Shown here one piece after another: positions 6,024 to 34,977 of a stretch of 64,000 nt of DNA. The notes beneath the pieces are model-generated. The model did not search any database, was not told the origin of the DNA, and saw only the letters and a program-made list of their open reading frames with translations. This DNA is from an uncultured Porticoccaceae bacterium (GTDB lineage: Bacteria > Pseudomonadota > Gammaproteobacteria > Pseudomonadales > Porticoccaceae): positions 72,405 through 136,404 of the forward strand of contig CAYXXZ010000001.1 of assembly GCA_964469165.1 (NCBI GenBank), written 5' to 3'. Position 1 is the stretch's first letter; each line of letters begins with the position of its first letter. A program made the translations under genes and the position numbers.

Positions 6024-7355
6024 TCACGAATCTCCAGAGATGCAAGGATTTGCTTGGCCACTATCAATAATGGTTGGCATGTGATTGCACCACCATCTAC
6101 TTTCAACTATTTGACTGCCATCGCAGATCCTAACATCGCTTGCACCCGATGCTCTTGAAATTATAAAAACTTCACCACTATCCGCATCGACGTAAACTGG
6201 CGGCATAATGCCTCCTGTCTTCGCATCAAAAACTATTCTCCAGTGGAGCTTCAGGGATGGCACTCCGCTGTCATAATCAGGCAAATATACCAAAGCGGAT
6301 CGATCAGATAGCACGCTTAGATCACGAAAATCTTCATAGCTATTTTCAGAGACAAATTTCTCAGCCATTTCAAGTGCACCACGTTCAGTAACTTCTGGAT
6401 GAGATTCATCTAAAGGGTCTATAAAATATGAAGTGGAAATATATCCAATTTTTCCCGTATTTTTATTGACTGCTATCTGCGCTCCACTACCTTCTACCAG
6501 AAGACCATTGATCCTTTCATCATACTCATAGATGACAGCATCCCCCACATTTTCGGTACTTCGGTATTGAAATTCCTCACCGCCCAGTTTTGGGTAGTTT
6601 CCGATTAGATAAGAAAGCACCGCGTCACCAGCCTCTTGCCTTCCTGACTTCAGCAGCTCAACGTCGAGGCTTACCTTCAGGTGATCAGAAGCTCTTAGAA
6701 TAGTATTAATTGTTCCATTTGGAGACAGCCTGTAGTCTTCTGGAGATATCTGAGACAAGAACTGATACTGCTTGATCTTGGCCTCCAAAAATCTAGCTCT
6801 TCTTTCAAAAGCACTTTCAGACAAAGACAAATAACTTTCTGACCCATCATCCTGAGTATAAATAATGTGGGTATTATTCTGATCGGATGGGCGAATTCTG
6901 ATGTTTCCTTCATTAGTTTTTATAACACCAGACATATTGAATGAGAGCGAAACACCTTCGTCTTTTTGGCCGAAGAAACTGTCCTTTTCAATGATAAACA
7001 ACACCTCGTTATCCGTATTACCTGTGAGGTGGCCTATCCAATGAACAACATTATCATTTTCTATATAATGGGTTTCTTTGAAAACAATATGATACACCTT
7101 GCCCTTGAAATTCAAGGAAACCATACTTCCGGGCTTCACCTTCTTGCCAACCAGCTCTTTTGGCTCAATATTGGAGAACTGATAGCTACTCGTTTGGGCA
7201 TCTAGTTTTTTCTTGTTTAATTTTTTCTCTAAGGCAGCGACAAAAGAGGAGGGGATAGGTTCGTTAATCGGCTTTGAAGTAACCATTGCGCTGAGAAAGA
7301 GCAAGAATATAGGGAAAAACAATAGTAGTCTTTTCATTTTGAACTCCGTGTTCAT
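6024..7355 (-). CDS. secreted protein with protease-propeptide-like (FTP/PepSY-like) region
   Basis: N-terminal signal peptide (MKRLLLFFPIFLLFLSAMVTS). The C-terminal part (...ALVYLP.....LKLHWRIVFDA......VYVDADSGEVF) resembles PepSY/propeptide inhibitor modules of secreted metalloproteases. The surrounding DNA is about 37-43% GC by spot counts. Confidence 0.55.
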   Translation of the reverse strand: MNTEFKMKRLLLFFPIFLLFLSAMVTSKPINEPIPSSFVAALEKKLNKKKLDAQTSSYQFSNIEPKELVGKKVKPGSMVSLNFKGKVYHIVFKETHYIENDNVVHWIGHLTGNTDNEVLFIIEKDSFFGQKDEGVSLSFNMSGVIKTNEGNIRIRPSDQNNTHIIYTQDDGSESYLSLSESAFERRARFLEAKIKQYQFLSQISPEDYRLSPNGTINTILRASDHLKVSLDVELLKSGRQEAGDAVLSYLIGNYPKLGGEEFQYRSTENVGDAVIYEYDERINGLLVEGSGAQIAVNKNTGKIGYISTSYFIDPLDESHPEVTERGALEMAEKFVSENSYEDFRDLSVLSDRSALVYLPDYDSGVPSLKLHWRIVFDAKTGGIMPPVYVDADSGEVFIISRASGASDVRICDGSQIVESRWWCNHMPTIIDSGQANPCISGDS

Positions 7356-11754: not shown

Positions 11755-12213
11755 TTACTCCTTCTTCAACCAGCCTGACCGGCTCGCTGCCACAAGGCTT
11801 TCCCAATCGTCTGGTGGGTTGCCGCGCGGGAGTATCTTCTCGAACACCGCGTAGGGATCGGATTTGCTACCGGAGGAACGAAGTGTCTGCTCATCGTTGA
11901 TCCAGGCGAACACGATGGTCCTGGACCTGGTGTCATATCGAAAGAACAGACGGAAACGCCTTCCAACCTTGGCTCGCCGCCAATGGCGGTGTGCCGGCCC
12001 CAGTGTGTTGCCTTGCCGATATTCACCCCGGCCCGGGTCGCGGGGTATGACCTCAAGAAGCAACTGGCTCAGAGCTCTGAACAACTTTACGTTGGCATTG
12101 CCTTGGTAACTTTGCGGGTCGTTGCGCTGCGCACGCTCGGCGGCTGATTCCAGTTTTCGCAGTTGTTCCAGAATGCATTCATGGAACAACAGTATCCATC
12201 CATGGCGTTGCAT
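11755..12213 (-). CDS. yhaV: type II toxin YhaV (ribonuclease)
   Basis: The block RFRLFFRYDTRSRTIVFAWINDEQTLRSSGSKSDPYAVFEKILPRGNPPDDWE closely parallels E. coli YhaV (RYRLFFRY...GWMNDENTLRTYGKKTDAY.VF.KML.RGHPP.DWE). Its ATG overlaps the upstream antitoxin stop (TGATG). Confidence 0.85.
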   Translation of the reverse strand: MQRHGWILLFHECILEQLRKLESAAERAQRNDPQSYQGNANVKLFRALSQLLLEVIPRDPGRGEYRQGNTLGPAHRHWRRAKVGRRFRLFFRYDTRSRTIVFAWINDEQTLRSSGSKSDPYAVFEKILPRGNPPDDWESLVAASRSGWLKKE

Positions 12214-24911: not shown

Positions 24912-27900
24912 TCACAGCTCTCCCCCCACTCCCTTGAACTTTTCAACGAAGGCAGCAATCCTCTGAAAGATACTTTGTTTCTTCGTCAGATACTGAGGGC
25001 TCAATGGACTCATTCTGGGAAGAACGCTGTTCAGCTCGGTGCCATTGTCACTGGCAAACTCCCGCTTCAGCGAGATGGCGATATAGCGCCTTGCTGCTTC
25101 CGCATTCAGGTTTTCATCGTCGATCAGTCTCTGCGCCTCACGCTGCTGTTCTGCGCGTGCAAAGGTGAAGAAGGCATCGATGATGCTGGCCTTGTCGGGA
25201 ATCTCATCCAGATCAGCCTGGTTGATGAAATCCACCACGAGACTCTCTTTGGCCCGGTTGCCCAGGCTGGCGCGGATCATGCGACGCACCTCTTCGACCA
25301 GATCAGCCTTGTTTCTGGTTTTCTTGTTGTGGTCAAAGATCAGCTCAAGGATGTAGTCCAGATTGATTTCCTGGGACTTGAGCAGATCCACTTCAAACAC
25401 TACGTCATCCCAGTCGATGGTGGACTGGTCTTTATTGTTGCCCGCTCTTTCCCTTCTCAGCCAATCGCGAATATCATTGTAGGTCGATTTGTAATCCTGA
25501 ATCTTGCGATCGGCAGGCAGCCTGATACTCTGCATTGCGGCCAGGTCATCGTCATCCAGGTAATGCTGTGCCTTGAATGCTTCCACAACGTCGGGATCGT
25601 TGAGATCAATGGTCTGCAGGGCCTTCAGGCTGGCAAATTCATCGAAATTCTGCAGAATGTTTTCTACCCGCAGATATTCGCCAAACAGCTTGGTAAATTC
25701 CTTCTTGTCCTTCTCCTTGAGGATCTTGTCCGGCTCAGGGAAGCGCTGTTCCAGCTCTGACACCACATCCATAAAGCCACGGCGTGCTTCACCGGTGACG
25801 ATATCGGTAAAGCCCTCCATGTATTCCTTGTAGCTCTTCTCCAGCACCACGTTCTTGGTGTTCTTGTCACCGAACAGGGTGATGGCATCGATAGTGGCTT
25901 TTTCGAGATCGCGGAAGGTGACGATATTTCCGAAGGTCTTGGTCGCATCATAAATCCGATTGGTGCGCGAGTAGGCCTGGATCAGACCGTGGTAACGCAG
26001 GTTCTTGTCGACAAACAGTGTGTTGAGCCTGGGCGCGTCGAACCCTGTCAGGAACATGCCCACCACAATCAGCAGATCGACCTCTCTGGATTTAACCCGC
26101 TTGGCCAGATCACGGTAGTAATTCTGGAAGCCGCTGCTGTCCACACCGAAGCTTGTCTTGAAGAATGCGTTGTAATCGTTGATAGCGGCACTCAGGAATT
26201 CCTTGGCACTACTGTTCATGGCCGAAACATCGAAGCTCTCGTCCTTAATATCGCCAATGGCATCCTGCTCCTCGTTGGCGGCAAAGGAAAAGATGGTGGC
26301 GATCTTCAGCGGCTTCTCGCTGGTCGTTTGCAACTGGCTCAGTGTCTCATAATAAAGCTTGGCCGCATCCACGCTGCTGACCGCAAACATGGCATTGAAG
26401 CCCCTCGCACCTGACTGCAGGCGATGGGTTTTCTGCCGGTAGTGGTTGAGAATATACTGCGATATCTCGCGGATACGCTCGGGATGCAGTAGAGCCTGGC
26501 GGTTCTCCGCTGCTGTCAGCTTCTGCTCATCCTGCTCGCTCTCGATCCCCTTGAACTGCGGGCGCACATCGTTGTAGTCCACCTTGAGCTTGAGCACCTT
26601 CTCATCACGGATGGCATCGGTAATCACGTAGGAGTGCAACTCGCGGCCAAACACGCTGGCGGTGGTTTCCGCGCCCAGGGCATTCTGCGGGAAAATCGGC
26701 GTACCGGTAAAACCGAACTGGTAGAACCTCTTGAACTTCTTCAGGTTCTTCTGCGCTTCACCAAACTGGCTGCGGTGGCACTCGTCGAAGATGAACACCA
26801 CCTGCTTGCGGTAGATCGGCAAATCCCCTTCGCCTTTCATCAGGTTGTTGAGCTTCTGGATGGTGGTAACGATGATCTTGTTGTCATCCTTGTCGATATT
26901 GCGCTTGAGCCCGGCGGTGCTATCCGAGCCGTTGACACTGTCCGGCGAAAAGCGCTGGTATTCCTTCATGGTCTGGTAGTCCAGGTCTTTCCTGTCTACC
27001 ACGAAAAACACCTTGTCGATGAAATCTAGCTCAGTCGCCAGCCGCGCTGCCTTGAAGCTGGTCAGGGTCTTGCCGGAGCCGGTGGTATGCCAGATAAAGC
27101 CACCGCTTTCCGGCTTGCTCCAGTTTCTGGCGTTATGGGAGCTGTTGATCTTCCACAGAATGCGCTCGGTAGCAGCAATCTGGTATGGGCGCATCACCAG
27201 CAAAGTATCGCTGACATCAAACACCGAGTATTTCAGCAGGACTTCCAGCAGGGTCTTTCTCTGGAAGAAGGTGGCGGTGAAGTCCTTCAGATCCTTGATG
27301 GGCTGGTTGTCCGACAGCGCCCAGTTCATGGTGAAGTCGAAGCTGTTCTTGTCCCGCCGGGTAGTATTGGCGAAGTAGCGCGTATCAGTGCCGTTGGAAA
27401 TCACGAACAGCTGCAGGTACTTGTACAGCGAATTGTCGCTGTTGAAGCTCTCCTTGCTGTAGCGGTGCACCTGGTTGAAGGCTTCGCGAATGGCTACACC
27501 GCGCCTTTTCAGCTCTACCTGCACCAGCGGCAGACCGTTGACCAGGATGGTCACGTCATAGCGGTTGGCATGAGTTCCGGTTTGCTCGAACTGCTTGATC
27601 ACCTGCAGTTTGTTGCGCGCCGGGTTTTTCTTGTCCAGCAGATAGATATTCTGAATGCGGCCATCGTCAAACACGAAGTCATGGATGTAGTCGTCATGAA
27701 TCTTGCGGGTCTTGTCGAGAATGCCGTCGCTGGGCTTGTCCAGAAAGATCTCGACAAAGCGCAGCCACTCGCCCTCGCTGAAGGCCACAGCGTTCAACGC
27801 CTGTAGCTGTGTGCGCACATTGGCCAGCATGGTCTGGGCGCTGTTCAGGCCCGGCAGGTATTCGTACCCCTGATTTTCAAGATCAGTGATGAACTCCCGC

Positions 27901-28007
27901 TCCAGATCACCTTCACTCTGGTAGCTATCCACCACCTGCCATTCTCGGCGGTAGCTGTCGAGCACAATAAAATGGTTGGTTTCGGCGATGGTTTTGTAAT
28001 CAGTCAT
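24912..28007 (-). CDS. hsdR: type I restriction enzyme R subunit, type IC (EcoR124-like)
   Basis: 1031 aa with nuclease motif and DEAD/SF2 motifs ([20 protein letters not shown]). Long stretches ([18 protein letters not shown]+[45 protein letters not shown]) match my recollection of EcoR124I HsdR nearly residue for residue. Confidence 0.95.
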
Positions 28008-28150
28008 TGCTTGCTGGTATCCCGGTCAGGTGGCTGTCTGTCACGTATCTGCACTGACATTTCAGCCCGCTTTCTTTCTGCACAAGGGTTGTCCTTGGAA
28101 ACTGCAGAAAACAACAATCTGTTGTTTTTATTGAACTTTTTAAACGACAC

Positions 28151-28188
28151 CTTTCTGCATCCTTTCTGCATCTTTGCCTTTCTGCATC
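28151..28188. promoter_or_regulatory. three direct CTTTCTGCATC repeats in the hsdR upstream region
   Basis: Copies at 28151-28161, 28162-28172 and 28178-28188, plus a degenerate copy CTTTCTGCAC at 28074-28083. All lie in the 190-bp gap that should carry the hsdR promoter. Confidence 0.4.
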
Positions 28189-28197
28189 CTGGCGTGG

Positions 28198-29856
28198 CTA
28201 TTCAGCAAGACGCCATACCGGCTGGCTCCGTGAGCCCGCGTTAATGATGCGATTATTACGTCTTAGCTTGGTTAATAAGTTACTGATTTTGTCTATCTTT
28301 TGCTGCTCGCTCAAAGCATCACTCAACTTATCCATCAACAACTTGTTGATCTCTGCACGATCCGCGCGGCCAAATCGATCAAGGTAGTCTGTAAGCAACT
28401 TTGCATAAAACGCATCATCCTGAGGCCGGGTGTGAATGTAGTCCGCCTTGCTTGCCGTAGCATCGGCAACCAGAGCAGATACATGAAAGTTCGGCTTGCG
28501 CCCTTCAATCAACCCTGCCTTGCGTAACCGGCTGGCTGCTTTATCCGTAATGGAGAGCTTTTTCTGCACCCGGTCGAGCGCCAATACATCAATCAACGGC
28601 AAATCTGTCTTTTGGATCAACAAGCGGCTATAGGCCGGGTCCACAACACCCCCGTAGAGTGTCATCCTGACCACATTAGTCTGACTCAGATCGTAGTCCG
28701 GCAGCGGAAAATAGCGCTGCACCTGGCCTCTATAGATGAGATGAATGCCATAACCCATGGTATCTATCATGTTCAGTTCAGCCATCGCCTGGGTAAGGAA
28801 GGGGTTGCGATATCGGCGCGGCGTTTTGTCGCCTTGGACATATTCATCGGGCTGGCCTTCAAAAAAACTGCCTTCATTCTCAAAGATCAGCCGGTCAGAT
28901 TGCTCGGTTACTACAACCCGACCATTGCGAGCATAGTCCTGGTGCGCAATACAGTTGTGCAGGGCTTCCAGCACAATTTTCTGGTTATATTTGGAGACTT
29001 CGATAGGGATCAATTCATCTTGCGGCAAAATACGCAGCTGAATATTGCGAATACGCTGATAAAGCAGGGTCGTGCTAAGTAAAAAAGGTGGGCTAAAGTG
29101 TTCATAGGCTCGCTCCTGTCCTTCCAGCTTCCAGGTCAGCTGTGCCGGGTGAGGCAGAAGGAAATATGCCGATTCTGCCTTGCCCAGCAACAAAAGTGCC
29201 GTTCGGGTAATTTGTCCGTTTTGGGTAAGGCGTGCGCGATCCAGGAATACCCTTAATGGCCAACTCATCACTTCGCTGGCTTCAAGGCGGTTGGCGTATT
29301 TTTGCGCAAATGACTCACGTGCTTTTCGAAGGGCTGTTTCATCCAGATCGTCCAGCGTGGCATCTGGAACAACTTGTGCTGTCCAATCTTGACGCAGGGT
29401 CTGCTGGCGTATTTCATCGAGCTTATCCAATCCCAATGAAGCCCGACTCTCACCTGCACGAGCGTAGTAATGTCCCTTCCAGGCAATAGGAATTCCGCAA
29501 GGAGCGGCGGGAATTTCAAATAAAATTACTCGCCCTTGCGGATGATCCAACACATGAATTTCGCGCAAGGTAATACTTGGCTCGGCAGATTGCGCAATCT
29601 GGTTCTTCAAGCTTTGCAAGCGCTCTCTTTCCATGCGGTAATCGCTACCCACTACGGCACGGGTTTTGTTATTGATACCGAATATCAACCAGGCGCGTTC
29701 TGCATTGCGCAAATTAGCTTCGTTACTGAGGGCTGAAAAATACTCACCTATTTTATTAGTATCGTAATCGTTGCTCGCCTGCTTGAACTCCACGACTTCG
29801 TTTTCCCAGGTGGCAATCAGGCGCTCAAGCAAACGAGTTAGCTCTTCCGGCGTCAT
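28198..29856 (-). CDS. AlbA_2 (Schlafen-type) domain + HATPase_c_4-like + C-terminal wHTH protein ('RecG-like helicase/putative regulator' family)
   Basis: The N-terminus E...VEFK.........IGEYFSA.SNEANL......WLIFGI.N.T...VG fits AlbA_2. The middle ALHN.IAHQDY.....V.V.....RL.FEN.G.F fits HATPase_c_4. The basic/helical C-terminus fits wHTH. Its ATG overlaps the hsdS stop (ATGA, 29853-29856). Confidence 0.75.
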   Translation of the reverse strand: MTPEELTRLLERLIATWENEVVEFKQASNDYDTNKIGEYFSALSNEANLRNAERAWLIFGINNKTRAVVGSDYRMERERLQSLKNQIAQSAEPSITLREIHVLDHPQGRVILFEIPAAPCGIPIAWKGHYYARAGESRASLGLDKLDEIRQQTLRQDWTAQVVPDATLDDLDETALRKARESFAQKYANRLEASEVMSWPLRVFLDRARLTQNGQITRTALLLLGKAESAYFLLPHPAQLTWKLEGQERAYEHFSPPFLLSTTLLYQRIRNIQLRILPQDELIPIEVSKYNQKIVLEALHNCIAHQDYARNGRVVVTEQSDRLIFENEGSFFEGQPDEYVQGDKTPRRYRNPFLTQAMAELNMIDTMGYGIHLIYRGQVQRYFPLPDYDLSQTNVVRMTLYGGVVDPAYSRLLIQKTDLPLIDVLALDRVQKKLSITDKAASRLRKAGLIEGRKPNFHVSALVADATASKADYIHTRPQDDAFYAKLLTDYLDRFGRADRAEINKLLMDKLSDALSEQQKIDKISNLLTKLRRNNRIINAGSRSQPVWRLAE

Positions 29857-31082
29857 GTCGTCGCCTCCGACTTGGGAAAGCTCAACAGCAGGTCGCGGTA
29901 GTATTCGTATTGCTTCCGACGCAGCTCGATTTCGCGGGGCAGGCCCTCGGTGATGGAGTTGGTCAGGGTGTCGAATTTGTCGAGGATGGCAACGATACGG
30001 GCTTGCTCGGCAAGCGACCTCTCCGGTTCATCCGGGTACGGCACAGGTATTCTTACCTTTGAAAAGCCATTTATCAGCAGAGTATTTACTTTAGTTCTTG
30101 CCACATACTTTGCCTTCTCCGCAATAAAGGATGCAGTTTGCATACAGTATGAAACAAATTTCGGGTTCATGGCGTGTCGAAAAGCGTAACAGTGGTCGTG
30201 AATAGCTACCCTCTCGGCACCGAGCCATGCCACAGCCTTTCCCACATCTTCCACCGTTTCTCCGACATCCGTTAACACCACATCACCTGGCTCTGCATAG
30301 CGTAGCGAGTCGGCCAATTCTGGTCTGACCTTGGAAAGCGCCTTCTCAGTAAACACGCCATACCGGGTATAAATTTCACCATAGTGAATAACACTGACAC
30401 CGCTATCTGTGTAGTCAGCTTTAGTAAAACGCTTACCGCGAATAAACTCGCCAACTTCTCCCAGAGCTTTCCACTCTACCTCGTCTTCTTCAAAGCTTAA
30501 TAACTTGTCGCGATAGTAGTTGTATTGCTGTTGACGTGTGCTAAGCTCGGCGGTCAGCTCGGCGGTCATGGCGGTAAATGCGTCCAGAATACGGGCAATT
30601 TCGGCCTGAATCTCAAGGGATTTTTTGGGGTTTTCTGGACAGGGGATAGGCACGGGAATTTCCGTTAGCTTCCCCTTTGTCAATTTAGCTCGGCCACCCC
30701 CAGTCAAAAACGGAACGAAATCTACTGTACGCAAGTAGTGGTACATAAATCTCGTATCAACTCCTGACAACCCGCGCACAACGTGGACATGATTATTTGC
30801 CCAAAACTTCCCAGTCGCATATTGAATGGAATAGTTTTCCAAGCTTGCTGAACCGTCCTCAGCAATCAACACAAACTCACCTTCGTGAGTATGGCCTCCA
30901 ACATGATCTTGAATATTGTTCGCACCGTAATATGGCGTTGGCCCGGGGATGCGCAGAGAGGCTTTTACCGGTTTCCTTCCACTATTCGCTATATCAAAAA
31001 GGTGCTCGTCACCTAAGACAGCCCACTCCACCTCCACGCCATCCAGCAGCTTGTCCAAAAAATCCACCTTACTCATTACCAT
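29853..31082 (-). CDS. hsdS: type I restriction enzyme S (specificity) subunit, type IC architecture
   Basis: 409 aa with two target-recognition halves. These are separated by the central conserved region ...ILDAFTAMTAELTAELSTRQQQYNYYRDKLLSF and end with ...ILDKFDTLTNSITEGLPREIELRRKQYEYYRDLLLSF. Confidence 0.9.
   Translation of the reverse strand: MVMSKVDFLDKLLDGVEVEWAVLGDEHLFDIANSGRKPVKASLRIPGPTPYYGANNIQDHVGGHTHEGEFVLIAEDGSASLENYSIQYATGKFWANNHVHVVRGLSGVDTRFMYHYLRTVDFVPFLTGGGRAKLTKGKLTEIPVPIPCPENPKKSLEIQAEIARILDAFTAMTAELTAELSTRQQQYNYYRDKLLSFEEDEVEWKALGEVGEFIRGKRFTKADYTDSGVSVIHYGEIYTRYGVFTEKALSKVRPELADSLRYAEPGDVVLTDVGETVEDVGKAVAWLGAERVAIHDHCYAFRHAMNPKFVSYCMQTASFIAEKAKYVARTKVNTLLINGFSKVRIPVPYPDEPERSLAEQARIVAILDKFDTLTNSITEGLPREIELRRKQYEYYRDLLLSFPKSEATT
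30544..30567. repeat. 2 x 12-bp tandem repeat encoding TAEL-TAEL in the hsdS central conserved region
   Basis: AGCTCGGCGGTC AGCTCGGCGGTC on the + strand translates to T-A-E-L T-A-E-L on the - strand. Confidence 0.9.
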
Positions 31083-32118
31083 AACTCTCGCTGTTGGGAT
31101 CCAGCTGCTTCAGCATTCGGTCAAAATCAGATTCATACAGGCGATCCTGTACCACGCGGTATTTTTCAAATTCGGTTTCGGCGTGGAGCTTGGCCTGCTC
31201 GTGGGAAATCTTGCCGGGGCCGGTGAGGATTTCATTACCGTTGAATTCCAGGAAACCATCCAGTCGCGTGGCCCAGTCCTGCATCGACATGGGGATTTTG
31301 CGCATGGCCTGTAGCTCGGCAAATTCCAGATAGACCGAAACGATGCGCTCCAGATACTTAAGTTCCTGCTGATCCAGGTAATTCTTGGCTACGGATACAT
31401 CTGTGCGAACAATCTTGCCATCAGGCGCCGCTGCCCAATGGGTCAGCCCCATGTTTTCCTTACTCGCATCAGCACGGGCGACGATAAGCTCTGCGGCTGT
31501 ATGCCGGTGCACAGCCCAGTGCAGCTTGTTCTGCACCAAGGCAAAGAACTCACGCGTGGTCTTTGCATTCCTGTCGTAATCGAACGCGGTGGCATAGAGA
31601 TCGGTAATCTTCTGGTAGAACTTGCGCTCGGACAGGCGAATTTCCCGGATATATTCCAGCTGGCGCTCGAAATACTCATCGGTGAACATGTGGCCCTTCT
31701 TCAGGCGCTCCACATCCATGATCCAGCCCTGGATGGTGTAGTCCTTCACGATCTGGCCTGCCCATTTGCGAAACTGCACGGCGCGAGGGTTGTTGACCTT
31801 GAAGCCCACAGCGATGATGGCTTGCAGGTTGTAGTGCTTGGTTTTGTAGTTTTTGCCATCTGCGGCAGTTATTAAGTAATCCTTAATAACTGCGTCGGGC
31901 TGCAGCTCGCTCTCGTCAAAAATACGTTTCAGGTGCTGGTTGATGGCGGGCACAGTGACGTCATACAGCTCAGCTATCAGCTTTTGCGTCAACCAGATGT
32001 TCTCATCTTCGTAGCGCATTTCCACGCTGGTCTGGCTATCACCCGTTGCGGCCACAAAAGTCAGGTATTCAGCCGCTGAAGAGCGAATGTTTGGCAGGCT
32101 CTGCTTCTTCTTTGCCAT
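31069..32118 (-). CDS. rhuM: RhuM family protein (virulence-protein RhuM-like, N-terminal HTH-like + Fic/DOC-related C-terminus)
   Basis: 349 aa. ...VE.R.E.E.+WLTQ..+AELY......I..HLK.IF...EL......K.........GK.Y....YNL.AIIAVG++VNS..A..FR.WA and ...FF..VQNK+H+A+...TAAE++ are typical RhuM. It overlaps the hsdS start by 14 nt and begins 2 nt after the hsdM stop. Confidence 0.8.
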   Translation of the reverse strand: MAKKKQSLPNIRSSAAEYLTFVAATGDSQTSVEMRYEDENIWLTQKLIAELYDVTVPAINQHLKRIFDESELQPDAVIKDYLITAADGKNYKTKHYNLQAIIAVGFKVNNPRAVQFRKWAGQIVKDYTIQGWIMDVERLKKGHMFTDEYFERQLEYIREIRLSERKFYQKITDLYATAFDYDRNAKTTREFFALVQNKLHWAVHRHTAAELIVARADASKENMGLTHWAAAPDGKIVRTDVSVAKNYLDQQELKYLERIVSVYLEFAELQAMRKIPMSMQDWATRLDGFLEFNGNEILTGPGKISHEQAKLHAETEFEKYRVVQDRLYESDFDRMLKQLDPNSESYGNE

Positions 32119-32120
32119 GC

Positions 32121-33665
32121 TTAGGCTCCTTCTATTTCGGCCACTATGACATCAATCTCGGCACGCAGCTGGGTGATTCTGGCCACAGTGGTTTTCAGCT
32201 CGGCATTGAGCTGGACGATATCAATCACCTCACGGGTGTCCGCAGCCTCTACGTAGCTGCTGACGGAGAGGTTGTAGTCATTGCCGGCGATTTCCTCGAA
32301 GGGCACTGAGCGGGCGAAGTGGTCCACATCTGCCTTGCTGTCGAACACCTGCATGATCTTGTCGATGTGCTCATCAGTCAGAATGTTGTTGTTGGTTTCC
32401 TTCTTGAACAGGCCACTGGCATCAATGAACTGGGTGGTGGTGTCCGCCTTGTGTTTGGACAGCACCAGAATGTTCACGGCAATGGTGGTGCCGAAAAACA
32501 GGTTGGGCGCCAGTGAGATCACGGTTTCGACAAAGTTGTTATCCATCAGATACTTTCTGATTTTCTGCTCGGCACCGCCGCGATAGAAGATACCGGGAAA
32601 GCAGACGATGGCGGCACGCCCCTTGCTGGACAGATAGCTGAGGGCATGCAGCACAAAGGCGAAGTCGGCCTTGGACTTGGGGGCCAGCACACCGGCGGGG
32701 GCAAAGCGGTCGTCGTTGATCAAGGTGGGGTCGTCAGAGCCGATCCACTTCACCGAATAGGGCGGGTTGGAGACGATGGCATCGAAGGGTTTGTTGTCAC
32801 CAAAGTGCGGGTCGATCAGGGTGTTGCCCAGCTGGATATTGAACTTGTCGTAGTTGATGTTGTGCAGAAACATGTTCATCCGCGCCAGGTTGTAGGTGGT
32901 GTGGTTGATCTCCTGGCCGAAGAAGCCCTCTTCGATGATGTGGGCGTCGAAATGTTTCTTGGCTTGCAGCAGCAATGAGCCGGAACCGCAGGCGGGGTCA
33001 AAAATCTTGTTGACGCTGGTTTGTTTGTGCATCGCCAGCCGGGCAATCAGCCTGGATACGTGCTGTGGGGTAAAAAATTCGCCGCCGGACTTGCCTGCGT
33101 TGGCTGCATAGTTGGAGATCAGGAACTCGTAGGCATCCCCGAACAGGTCGATATGGGCCGCGTCAAAGTTGCCAAAATCCAAGCCTGCCACGCCCTTCAG
33201 CACCGCTGACAGACGAGCGTTCTTGTCCTTGACGGTGTTGCCGAGGCGGTTACTGGTGGTGTCGAAGTCTGCAAACAGACCTTTGATGTCCTGCTCGGAC
33301 GGATAGCCATTGGCGGAAGCTTCAATGTCGGCAAAGATCCTGGCGAGATCGGTGTTGAGGCTTTCGTTGCTGTGGGCGCTTTTGGCGATATTGGCAAACA
33401 GCTGGCCGGGGTAGATGAAATAGCCCTTGGTTTTGATGGCGTCATCGCGAATTTCCGGGGTAATGACGGTGTCGGGCAGCTCAGCGTAGTTGATGCTTTC
33501 GTCACCGGCTTCGATGTAGCTGGCAAAGTTCTCGCTGATAAAGCGGTAGAACAGGGTGCCCAGCACATACTGCTTGAAGTCCCAGCCATCCACCGCGCCG
33601 CGGACATCGTTGGCAATGGCCCAAATTTGACGTTGCAGGGCGGCGCGTTGTTGTGAGCTAGTCAT
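32121..33665 (-). CDS. hsdM: type I restriction enzyme M subunit (N6-adenine DNA methyltransferase)
   Basis: [17 protein letters not shown]+.+RG...GWDFKQY+LG.LFYRF+SE, motif I (DPACGSGS) and motif IV (NPPYS). ATG 33665 is chosen; the 33983 ORF start would run into the divergent neighbour. Confidence 0.95.
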
Positions 33666-33831
33666 GCTGGTGTTCCTGTTTGAATAGATTTTTTTGAATA
33701 GCGATTCAGTGTGAAACCTGTTGCGCATTGTAACGAGTAAAGCGTTGCGAGCCAGCAGCCCAGAGTCGGGAGCCCAGATACGAAGCCGCATCCCAATGTT
33801 ATCATTGCGCCTTTTCTTCCAGGCTCCAGCC

Positions 33832-34977
33832 ATGCCCGCAGTCAACGATATTTTCACCGCCAGCGTTCGCGATCTTTCGTCGGATGGCAATGGCGTGGTC
33901 GAGCATCGCAGCGGGCAGATTTTTTTTGTGCCGGGGGTGTGGCCGGGGGAAGAGGGCGAGTTTCGGGTAACGGGGTTTCGCAAGAGTTTTGGTTTCGCCC
34001 GGCTGGTGAAATTGCTGCGGCCCGCACCGGAGCGGGTGACGCCTCAGTGCGTTCACCAGGGATTTGGTCGCGATGATTGCGGCGGCTGCCCCTGGCAGTT
34101 CGTCACTTACGAGGCGCAACTGGCGGCCAAGGAGATGAGGGTGCGGCGTGCGCTGAGTCGCCTGGGCCTCGATGAGCGCATTCGGCCCATTTGGGGCTCA
34201 CCGCAGCAGTTCGGCTACCGCAACCGCGCCCAATTGAAAAGCGATGGCCGCGCCATCGGCTATGTAGCCCAGGGCTCGAACCGCCTGGTGGCGATCGACG
34301 ATTGCCCCATTCTGAGCGACCACAACCGCCAAACCCTGAAGGATTTTCTCGCAACCCTGCCCAATCCCGCGCTGCGCCCGAGCCGCAAGGCGCAATGGAG
34401 CACGCTGGATATCGATGAGGCGCTGACCGCGGAGACCGTGTCCATCAACAGGCGTCGCCCCTTCCAGCAGGCCAACAGCGCCCAGAATCTGCGTATGCGC
34501 GATTGGCTGGCCCGTTCCCTCGCGAATGCGGACAAGGCCCTGCCGGTGGTGGAGCTGTTCGCCGGCTCGGGCAATTTCACCGAGGTTCTGCATAACGCGG
34601 GGTTCGAGCGCATCCTGGCGGTGGAGGGTGTGGCCGAGGCGGTCGATGCTCTCGACACCCAGGGTTGGCGCGGCGTGGAGGGGCTGGTGTGTGATCTGTT
34701 CAGTGAGGCTGGAGCGAGGACTGCGGCGCAAGCTGCCTCGGGTTCGGGAGTGCTGGTGCTGGATCCACCCAGGGACGGTTTTCGCCATATCGGCACACTC
34801 ACCACCGCACTATCGAAGTTGCGCCATATAGCCTACATCTCCTGTGATCTTGCTACCTTTGTCCGCGATATGCAGACCTTGCTACAGCAAGGCTTTGTAG
34901 TCGATCACATCCAGCCGCTCGATCTTTTTCCGCATACGCCGCACGTGGAACTGCTGGCCGCGCTGCGCAAACCCTGA
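33832..34977 (+). CDS. RumA/RlmD-family RNA (uracil-C5)-methyltransferase
   Basis: TRAM-like N-terminus, a Cys cluster (C...C..C.W), YRN+.Q, and SAM motifs VVELF.GSGNF and DPPR.G. Confidence 0.75.

Follow-up and report, generated by a model that had tools for sequence, protein, structure and literature searches.

A Schlafen–GHKL ATPase gene with its own 11-bp repeat array before the restriction gene of a type IC operon: a possible DNA-tethered regulator or backup effector

Results

A type IC operon with a Schlafen gene between hsdS and hsdR

We analysed a 64,000-nt stretch of DNA (hereafter, the window) from an uncultured Porticoccaceae bacterium (assembly GCA_964469165.1, contig CAYXXZ010000001.1, positions 72,405–136,404), concentrating on slfn, a 552-aa gene of a restriction-modification (R-M) operon, and on the short repeats that follow it. 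According to the open reading frames (ORFs) of the window, the whole operon lies on the minus strand in the order hsdM, rhuM, hsdS, slfn and hsdR (Table 1). The slfn start codon overlaps the hsdS stop codon (29853–29856, reading tcat on the plus strand and ATGA on the gene strand), and 190 bp (28008–28197) separate slfn from hsdR. An initial annotation of this DNA had reported the 552-aa gene between hsdS and hsdR, its overlap with hsdS and the gap before hsdR, all of which are present; it made no mention of the minus-strand orientation. HsdR contains an EcoR124_C domain and aligned over its full length with EcoR124I HsdR (PDB 2w00, 1810 bits); on this basis, the R-M system was assigned to the EcoR124-like type IC group.

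Relatives at least 80% identical to Slfn were found in Methylophilus, Agitococcus and several metagenome-assembled genomes, and all of them showed the order hsdM-X-hsdS-slfn-hsdR, where X was RhuM, YhcG/DUF1016 or Fic. The 4-bp overlap of hsdS and slfn recurred in 5/5 other type IC relatives examined (L001, L009, L011, L013 and L014; L-numbers denote loci of Slfn relatives), and therefore the arrangement is not due to chance. Over five related type IC operons, amino acid identity was 80–88% for Slfn, 82–89% for HsdM and 77–84% for HsdR, and 36–45% for HsdS, whose target-recognition domains vary, as expected. Since it is conserved as well as HsdM and HsdR, Slfn is a core component of the operon, and the hsdM–hsdS slot is the variable one. 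Accordingly, slfn is inherited together with the rest of this EcoR124-like type IC operon, which is horizontally mobile, and forms a fixed fourth part of it.

Plasmid-borne type IC operons whose HsdR N-terminus was 78–83% identical to that of the window held other genes between hsdS and hsdR. The slot was occupied by a RefSeq "anticodon nuclease" (PrrC) with an AAA_13 domain, overlapping hsdR by 8 nt, in the Escherichia coli plasmid NZ_CP116245, by a PrrC-like AAA_13 protein in Paracoccus pKON1, and by a RhuM/Fic protein in Methylophaga. Because orthologous type IC operons carry PrrC, RhuM/Fic or Slfn there, the position directly 5' of hsdR takes interchangeable accessory effectors within one orthologous R-M family. 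The hsdR gene was directly coupled (overlap or 7-nt gap) to its upstream neighbour in the PrrC and RhuM/Fic operons; with Slfn, a gap of 68–210 bp holding repeats preceded hsdR in 6/6 type IC operons examined.

The same operon family has two cargo positions, the variable one between hsdM and hsdS and the fixed one (Slfn) between hsdS and hsdR. The former was occupied by RhuM in the window, YhcG/DUF1016 in L001 (5675–6715) and Fic in L011 (6242–6847). In the type IC locus L014 (11795–13679), a RhuM fragment and a full RhuM gene lay between slfn and hsdR; therefore, cargo can also land 3' of the repeats.

Slfn combines a Schlafen domain, a GHKL ATPase and two predicted winged helices

Pfam detected SLFN_AlbA_2 at residues 18–137 (E = 1.1e-15) and HATPase_c_4 (GHKL, PF13749) at residues 314–399 (E = 2.6e-10), the latter C-terminal to the Schlafen domain and with Bergerat ATP-binding motifs. 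The AlphaFold2 model, built from a 143-sequence alignment (predicted local distance difference test, pLDDT, 85.5; an earlier run on 23 near-identical sequences gave pLDDT 54 and was discarded), added a helical domain at residues 156–238 and two C-terminal winged helix-turn-helix (wHTH) domains of helix-helix-helix-hairpin topology. The wHTH domains come from the model and not from Pfam, in which no family matched the C-terminal 147 residues or the helical domain even at E ≤ 10. In a Foldseek search, the model matched 3lmm (E = 2.7e-20), human SLFN11 (7zel; E = 7e-4, probability 0.99) and the ATP-binding domains of histidine kinases and PDK. A profile of the Slfn family aligned its ExxxxEFK motif to the equivalent motif in SLFN14, SLFN11 and Slfn8, and matched 3lmm at E = 9e-15; the profile was needed because a single-sequence PDB search returned only 3lmm, at E = 0.25. 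The entry 3lmm (DIP2311 of Corynebacterium diphtheriae) is the only solved full-length structural relative of Slfn, to which it is ~17–19% identical; it is a structural-genomics entry without known function.

The catalytic motif E-x4-(E/D)-x-K is present as E18-NEVV-E23-F-K25, and its three residues were kept in 82/83 close relatives and in at least 90% of sequences in an alignment of 30–83% identity. At the position of the third Schlafen carboxylate, which we take from the profile alignment to correspond to D252 of SLFN11, the window Slfn has an asparagine, N63 (GINN); in the wider family, this position was Asp in 42/66. The SAFAN "Schlafen box" (bioRxiv 10.64898/2026.05.29.728809) was present as Y39-F-S-A-L-S-N45, with columns nearly invariant in the family alignments. 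In the GHKL domain, E297 and N301 were invariant, and N/S327-x-G329 and G368-x-G370 occurred in 83/83 close relatives.

Slfn is thus a prokaryotic Schlafen (pSlfn) of the Schlafen–GHKL ATPase–wHTH class ("Schlatpase"-HTH, or pSlfn HisKinase-HTH), in a family of 4524 clusters at 50% identity (E ≤ 1e-3). The initial annotation had called the AlbA_2/Schlafen, HATPase_c_4 and wHTH parts correctly, the first two being borne out by Pfam and the last by the model. It had also proposed a search for conserved catalytic and nucleotide-binding residues, of which E-x4-E-x-K and the GHKL motifs are conserved and the third carboxylate is replaced by Asn, here and in most close relatives. No NCBIfam model matched Slfn, and PADLOC returned weak partial matches only (PDC-S50 at 2e-5 and pAgo-associated models), so current defence annotation would miss it. 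The name given by NCBI is "RNA-binding domain-containing protein", and many database entries are named "transcriptional regulator".

Most relatives lie in type III operons

We scanned 80 species-representative genomes from many phyla, with Slfn relatives at 53–89% identity. At 53–77% identity, the relatives mostly belonged to type III R-M operons, in which slfn stood between mod and res. The order Mod-Slfn-Res was found in 45/80 representatives, with ~8 more being partial or miscalled type III; a further 4/80 were type I, from at least three lineages, and 5/80 were Slfn-Mod(-Res). The type III calls were confirmed by PADLOC (MTase_III, E = 3e-238; REase_III, E = 0). In total, ~57/80 were flanked by type I or type III R-M genes, either on both sides or as far as the contig extended. 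The median gaps at type III loci were 4 nt 5' of slfn and 87 nt from slfn to res. A Brocadia homologue only 46% identical to Slfn also showed the order mod-slfn-res. Type I operons accounted for 15/80 relatives in a more distant metagenomic set; all 15 lay directly 5' of hsdR, and 14 had hsdS on their other side. Beyond these, the neighbours that could be recognised in this set were STAND NTPases, MmeI-type enzymes, SIR2 and BrxC. A tblastn search against plasmids returned only four full-length relatives.

Among the loci without a recognised R-M neighbour, some held res remnants and others were in mixed defence or housekeeping contexts. A short truncated res frame (MKLKFK...) followed the repeats in L019 (~2640–2670) and L028 (~11810–11870). 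At each of these two loci, a type III operon has decayed, and slfn and its repeats have outlasted the restriction gene.

The type III hosts of Slfn usually add DUF4391 and a helicase-related gene. This specific subtype, with DUF4391 and an upstream "helicase-related protein", is exemplified by L093 (1–3730; Sulfitobacter plasmid NZ_CP139711) and L040 (7342–8106). No PADLOC model matched DUF4391, which was almost absent from the literature searched. Some of the operons also carried a gene of ~950–1000 aa matching the PADLOC candidate HEC-07 between DUF4391 and mod/slfn (L024, 5109–7973; L015, 6987–9989).

An 11-bp repeat array follows slfn

In the window, repeats of ~11 bp with the unit TGCAGAAAG extend from just after the slfn stop codon toward hsdR (Table 1). 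The distal array starts 10 nt past the stop, and the proximal copy lies 77 and 88 bp (7 and 8 × 11) from two of the distal copies. The sequence TGCAGAAA occurs at 10 sites in the window, five of them within 28075–28186, against 2.9 expected in the whole 64 kb. No array repeat was detected 5' of hsdM by the TGCAGAAA and repeat searches of the window, and the RNA fold of the 190-bp gap was not significant (z = -1.75).

Table 1. Genes, domains and repeat features of the R-M operon in the window
Feature	Position	Strand	Basis
hsdM, type I methyltransferase	33665..32121	-	Pfam HsdM_N + N6_Mtase; TIGR00497 E 2.6e-197
rhuM, occupant of variable hsdM–hsdS slot	32118..31069	-	Pfam Virulence_RhuM E 2e-105; PADLOC PDC-S05
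hsdS, specificity subunit	31082..29853	-	Pfam Methylase_S; PADLOC Specificity_I E 1e-128
slfn, 552 aa: Schlafen, helical, GHKL ATPase, wHTH1, wHTH2	29856..28198	-	Pfam; AlphaFold2 model; Foldseek
Schlafen (AlbA_2) nuclease-like domain, residues 1–155	29392..29856	-	E18/E23/K25 (nt 29782–29805), SALSN box 41–45, N63
GHKL (Bergerat-fold) ATPase domain, residues 239–405	28642..29142	-	HATPase_c_4; conserved motifs; structural matches
C-terminal region: wHTH1 406–462, disordered linker 463–479, wHTH2 480–552	28201..28641	-	AlphaFold2 model
Distal array: ATGCAGAAAGG (gene strand) in three direct copies, at spacings of 16 and 11 bp	28150..28190	-	Repeat search
Inverted repeat copy 28103–28110; 9-bp palindrome AAAACAACA/TGTTGTTTT 28108–28128	28103..28128	.	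Inverted-pair search
IHF-like match AACAACAGATTGT, overlapping the palindrome (tentative)	~28114–28126	gene strand	Relaxed IHF-type pattern
Proximal direct copy TGCAGAAAGAAAGC, ~70 nt before hsdR start	28069..28082	-	Repeat search
hsdR, EcoR124I-like type IC restriction/translocase subunit, 1031 aa, 3' of repeat array	28007..24912	-	Pfam HSDR_N, SWI2_SNF2, T1R_D3-like, EcoR124_C

The array is a property of the family. Over 81 loci, TGCAGAA was enriched 37-fold in the 200 nt after the slfn stop; the motif was shared by type I relatives, including L013 and L011 (6.5 and four perfect 11-bp units, respectively), and by type III loci. Other clades used other motifs (TGCAGAGAG, TACGAAAGAA, TTAGAAGTAAA, TTTAGATAAAC and ACGCAATTTAA), and at any one locus the direct and inverted copies had the same motif and changed together between clades, with a family-wide registered core of T-T/G-N-A-G-A. 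Using control genes taken from the Slfn loci themselves, at least three exact copies of a 7-mer within 150 nt were found at 47% of Slfn loci in the close set and 59% in the distant set, versus 7% of controls (Fisher p = 8e-17 and 5e-22, respectively). Strict tandem arrays of at least three units followed slfn at 31/154 loci and 6/894 control genes (p = 1e-21), at a median offset of 6 nt from the slfn stop. When periods of 8–15 bp were allowed, the period was 10–12 bp in all 31 strict arrays and 11 bp in 19 of them. Adjacent copies were 11 bp apart in 36/114 cases and 12 bp apart in 18/114, and longer spacings clustered near 22, 33, 55, 66, 77 and 88 bp, although related loci share their layout and these counts are not independent. 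An IHF-like site (WATCAR-N4-TTR) was tentatively recognised between the distal and proximal copies at ~24/85 loci, mostly proteobacterial, representing a 5–9-fold enrichment.

The array also followed slfn where mod was the downstream gene (L015 and L092) and was kept at loci lacking a recognised R-M gene nearby (L022, L052 and L080), and it was absent 5' of hsdR in the PrrC and RhuM/Fic operons. It therefore belongs to slfn and not to the restriction (R) gene. At its far end, it enters the 5' region of the next gene, in most cases R.

The unit copy number varied from ~1 to 6.5 among operons 80–88% identical in Slfn (L013, 6338–6408; the window; L011; L014), which suggests that the variation is slippage-driven and could tune whatever the array controls. 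In Ureibacillus thermosphaericus (L094, 9690–10000), where a 46%-identical Slfn follows a fused ResIII+Eco57I enzyme, at least three copies of a ~62-bp repeat unit lay 3' of slfn, each with inverted TTTAGATAAA/ATCTAAATAAA elements, as a larger-scale version of the array.

Surroundings of the operon

The R-M island (~24.9–33.7 kb) had a G+C content of 50–55%, compared with 60–62% in its flanks, and was bordered by housekeeping genes. No tRNA gene and no other defence gene was found near it, and no integrase was found among the neighbouring ORFs scanned against Pfam. The longest hsdM ORF begins at TTG 33983 (620 aa); because the HsdM_N and TIGR00497 matches begin near its residue 112, translation probably starts at ATG 33665, which is preceded by AGGA and would give 514 aa. 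The 5' extension (33665–33983) overlaps a plus-strand ORF (33721–34977) resembling a TrmA/RlmD-like methyltransferase. Elsewhere in the window, a 2-kb patch of low G+C content (41.8% versus ~60%) holds a minus-strand ORF of 443 aa (6024–7355) without a Pfam match, which may be another horizontally acquired orphan gene.

Discussion

Relation to known systems

Bacterial Schlafens are phage-triggered, Mn-dependent tRNase defence effectors (PMC13056530), and tRNase effectors have also been described in PMC13462974 and bioRxiv 10.64898/2026.05.29.728809. The commonest pSlfn architectures are HisKinase (34%) and HisKinase-HTH (19.2%) (PMC13056530), and the wHTH/HTH architecture was described both there and in PMC12839542. 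The validated members RorSlfn5 and EcoSlfn7 (Nat Microbiol 2026, PMC13056530) are single genes with Ig-like or DUF262 sensors, and of seven pSlfn genes cloned in that study with 100–150 bp of upstream sequence, only the DUF262 and Ig-like fusions protected. The HisKinase-HTH class and the window Slfn are alike in their N-terminal Schlafen domain with E-x4-(E/D)-x-K, and the class is tied to defence islands; however, the R-M slot, the type III linkage and the repeat array found in the Slfn family are not reported in PMC13056530.

The pairing of a Schlafen domain (PF04326) with a GHKL domain (PF13749) has been named "Schlatpase", in which ATP drives assembly of the tRNase as a tetramer and filament formation holds it inactive; stand-alone or HsdS-fused Schlatpases occur in type I operons of Poribacteria (bioRxiv 10.64898/2026.05.29.728809). 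Slfn has this domain pair in common with the Schlatpase of SLFN-pAgo (RzAgo). In contrast to that system, it has two winged helices and a DNA repeat array in place of an Argonaute sensor, and carries Asn at the third carboxylate. Proteins with a Schlafen–minimal histidine kinase–wHTH architecture, present in at least 1017 taxa, have been described as "backup suicidal effectors" linked to BREX (NAR 2026, PMC12839542). That study was computational and covered BREX and BREX-related loci; it shares with Slfn the architecture and the concept of a second-line RNase in a methylation-based defence operon, but does not describe the slot 5' of R in type I and type III operons or an array in cis. RNases embedded in R-M loci (PrrC, HEPN families, RhuM and Fic) have been a general idea since 2013, with a backup role behind restriction proposed for PrrC (PMC3710099). 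The R-M backup-effector idea is of a known kind, already published for BREX and applied here to an uncharacterised class and context. The placement directly 5' of R in type I and type III operons and the family-wide iteron-like array appear to be undescribed; the literature searched contained no account of the array or of the slot in type III operons, and no paper linking Schlafens with such repeats.

These comparisons also bear on the initial annotation, which had proposed a functional analogue of PrrC tied to a type I R-M complex. Its "PrrC slot" analogy is well founded, in that orthologous type IC operons (HsdR N-terminus ~80% identical) hold PrrC or RhuM/Fic at the same place, and the neighbourhood survey that it had called for placed most relatives beside R-M genes, with the R-M-flanked majority joined by five lying just 5' of mod. 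The linkage to type I systems, however, is only part of the picture, as the closest sister clade lies in type III operons, which had been missed. The annotation had known of no experimental characterisation; related Schlafens have since proved to be tRNases and the BREX backup idea has been published, yet the HisKinase class is still uncharacterised.

PrrC of the type IC system EcoprrI resembles Slfn in occupying the hsdS–hsdR slot and in joining a nuclease to an NTPase, but the folds are unrelated (ABC/AAA_13 ATPase and HEPN in PrrC; GHKL and Schlafen in Slfn). PrrC overlaps hsdR and has neither an intergenic array nor DNA-binding domains, the reverse of Slfn, and it is known only from type I contexts, whereas the Slfn clade is mostly type III. 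Membership in the PrrC/RloC group was therefore rejected: Slfn shares the slot but has no AAA_13, ABC or HEPN match (R-x4-6-H class). In type II R-M systems, C-proteins are DNA-binding proteins encoded just 5' of the restriction gene, whose repeated operators could time R after M. They are ~80-aa HTH proteins that autoregulate through palindromic C-boxes 5' of their own gene, whereas Slfn is a 552-aa multidomain protein with direct 11-bp repeats 3' of its gene and none 5' of hsdM, and membership in this group was likewise rejected. A ToxIN-like type III toxin-antitoxin system was rejected on account of the 10–12-nt period, the position downstream of the gene, and the inverted and phased dispersed copies, in contrast to the ~34–36-nt repeats of ToxIN 5' of the endoRNase gene. 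In its DNA architecture, the array recalls parC of plasmid R1, where ParR binds tandem 11-bp direct repeats cooperatively on one face of the DNA, forms a higher-order complex and regulates the adjacent promoter; the likeness ends there, as fold and biology (plasmid segregation) are unrelated.

A proposed mechanism and its alternatives

The model that we favour, at somewhat less than even confidence, is an ATP-switched Slfn oligomer on the array that is coupled to expression of the R gene and includes a latent RNase half. By analogy with the homologous module of SLFN-pAgo, Slfn would oligomerise via its GHKL domain on ATP binding. The two predicted C-terminal winged helices would read the array, a predicted double-stranded DNA site; DNA is preferred to RNA because of the phasing and the inverted copies. 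Array-bound Slfn would then couple to R-gene expression in the manner of a controller or a roadblock, an effect that we infer from the array separating hsdR from the upstream genes where Slfn is present, compared with direct coupling where PrrC or RhuM/Fic is. Binding to the array may also park the Schlafen domain in a latent state. If infection or anti-restriction disturbed that state, the E-E-K site would act as a metal-dependent RNase, most likely on tRNA, and translation would arrest.

Several observations weigh against this model. The effector half is the less secure one, owing to the Asn at the third carboxylate together with a negative result for the class: position 63 was Asn in 57/83 close relatives and acidic in only 26/83, so with N63 in place of the carboxylate, the nuclease activity may be weak, altered or lost, and neither of two HisKinase-class pSlfns protected against phage when cloned alone (PMC13056530). 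About a quarter of the close relatives (19/80, or 18 after correction of L079) had no recognised R-M neighbour. Regarding the DNA-binding half, the C-terminal domains had no sequence match to any known DNA-binding family in Pfam, and neither a sigma-70-like promoter nor a terminator was detected in the 190-bp gap between slfn and hsdR. Mutual information between motif nucleotides and protein columns was not localised to the winged helices; each domain held top columns in keeping with its size, and the signal is therefore phylogenetic. By eye, GAGAG-type motifs seemed to accompany Y521 and changes at N526, a pattern likewise confounded by phylogeny. Many type III loci have only ~60 bp before res, with the last repeat overlapping the ribosome-binding region, and therefore an RNA-level mechanism fits these loci equally well.

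Two of the alternatives differ from the favoured model in what the repeats do. In one, Slfn would be purely a transcriptional or translational controller of R, analogous to type II C-proteins, with a regulatory Schlafen domain and no abortive infection. The initial annotation had counted a simple regulator of the hsd promoter as an outcome that would refute its effector proposal, and this outcome gains ground in so far as the array before the R gene points to coupling with R at the DNA level. The position of the array between slfn and R in both type I and type III operons, the repeat-holding gap with Slfn where hsdR is otherwise directly coupled, the frequent Asn at the third carboxylate, the failure of HisKinase-class genes alone to defend (PMC13056530) and the many "transcriptional regulator" entries all agree with it. 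We nevertheless regard it as unlikely, since a protein that did no more than bind DNA would hardly be expected to conserve E18/E23/K25 in 82/83 and the GHKL Glu and Asn in 83/83 relatives, the array is kept at loci with a gene other than R downstream or without a recognised R-M gene, and family members also occur in BREX, STAND, SIR2 and MmeI contexts (PMC12839542). In the other, the repeats would act as RNA within the slfn–R mRNA, either as a pseudo-substrate or antitoxin of the Schlafen RNase or as a translational operator or hairpin at the R ribosome-binding site. Tandem repeats beside an RNase gene recall ToxIN, and at many loci the last type III repeat (AGAAAGG) overlaps the Shine-Dalgarno region, where an inverted copy could pair. 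An RNA role would also accord with the NCBI family name and with the locking off of SLFN-pAgo by RNA-guided filaments (bioRxiv 10.64898/2026.05.29.728809). However, the 11-bp period and its multiples fit one face of B-DNA, many arrays have direct copies only, so that a hairpin is not general, and the fold of the window gap was not significant; with the IHF-like site between the sub-arrays of proteobacterial loci and the two winged-helix domains of Slfn also speaking for DNA, this explanation appears very unlikely.

The remaining alternatives concern how the effector is held and whether it has anything to do with restriction. A strict PrrC-like latch, in which a latent tRNase is silenced by contact with HsdM2S(R) and freed by phage anti-restriction, the repeats being irrelevant to its control, would suit the slot shared with PrrC in orthologous type IC operons, the ATGA coupling to hsdS, which favours stoichiometric co-assembly, and the conserved E-x4-E-x-K site and ATPase motifs, a nuclease-plus-NTPase design paralleling the ABC-HEPN design of PrrC (PMC3710099). 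It is nonetheless rather improbable: the clade also accompanies type III Mod/Res and a number of unrelated type I families, and it occurs at loci where R-M genes were not recognised, which makes a specific interface with one R-M complex unlikely, and PrrC has no DNA-binding domains, unlike Slfn with its two winged helices and co-varying array. At the opposite extreme, slfn could be an autonomous single-gene defence or selfish module, without a link to restriction, that hitch-hikes in R-M operons as expressed landing sites. Most of the distant relatives, as well as the quarter of the close ones noted above, are not flanked by recognised type I or type III genes, the neighbours at such loci are heterogeneous, and pSlfn5 and DUF262-Slfn act as single genes (PMC13056530). 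Against such autonomy stand the precise and repeated placement directly 5' of R in type III and several independent type I lineages, conservation on a par with HsdM and HsdR, the tight upstream coupling (overlapping by 4 bp in type I, with a median gap of 4 nt in type III) and, again, the lack of defence by HisKinase-class genes alone (PMC13056530), and we give it little credence. A further possibility, which we consider doubtful but worth stating, is that Slfn is a DNA-tethered guard whose ATP-dependent oligomers form on the phased iteron array beside its own gene, the array serving both as operator of the adjacent restriction or BREX effector gene and as safety catch of the tRNase, so that stripping Slfn off the DNA would fire the nuclease. 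Candidate triggers would be DNA-mimic anti-restriction proteins (such as Ocr or ArdA) and phage-induced degradation or remodelling of host DNA. If true, such a guard would be a general second-line module common to type I, type III and BREX systems, and it would explain why class genes cloned without the array and the partner operon gave no defence.

Implications

Schlafen-GHKL(-HTH) proteins are the most abundant bacterial Schlafen form, HisKinase and HisKinase-HTH together making up ~53% of pSlfns (PMC13056530). Our analysis offers three handles on this class: the partner context 5' of the R gene, interchangeable with PrrC in one operon family; the 11-bp phased array, which was probably left out of the published constructs, as these carried 100–150 bp of upstream sequence; and an active-site peculiarity, E-E-K being strictly kept while the third carboxylate is usually Asn. 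The window Slfn is a bacterial relative of the human antiviral Schlafen nucleases in a slot held elsewhere by the suicide nuclease PrrC, and its own 11-bp array before the restriction gene suggests a DNA-tethered regulator or backup effector. To our knowledge, type I and type III R-M systems have no C-protein-like controllers. If Slfn binds the array, these systems would have their first dedicated connection at the DNA level between an accessory effector and restriction-subunit expression, and the theme of a filament or oligomer as safety catch would extend from SLFN-pAgo to a far larger family.

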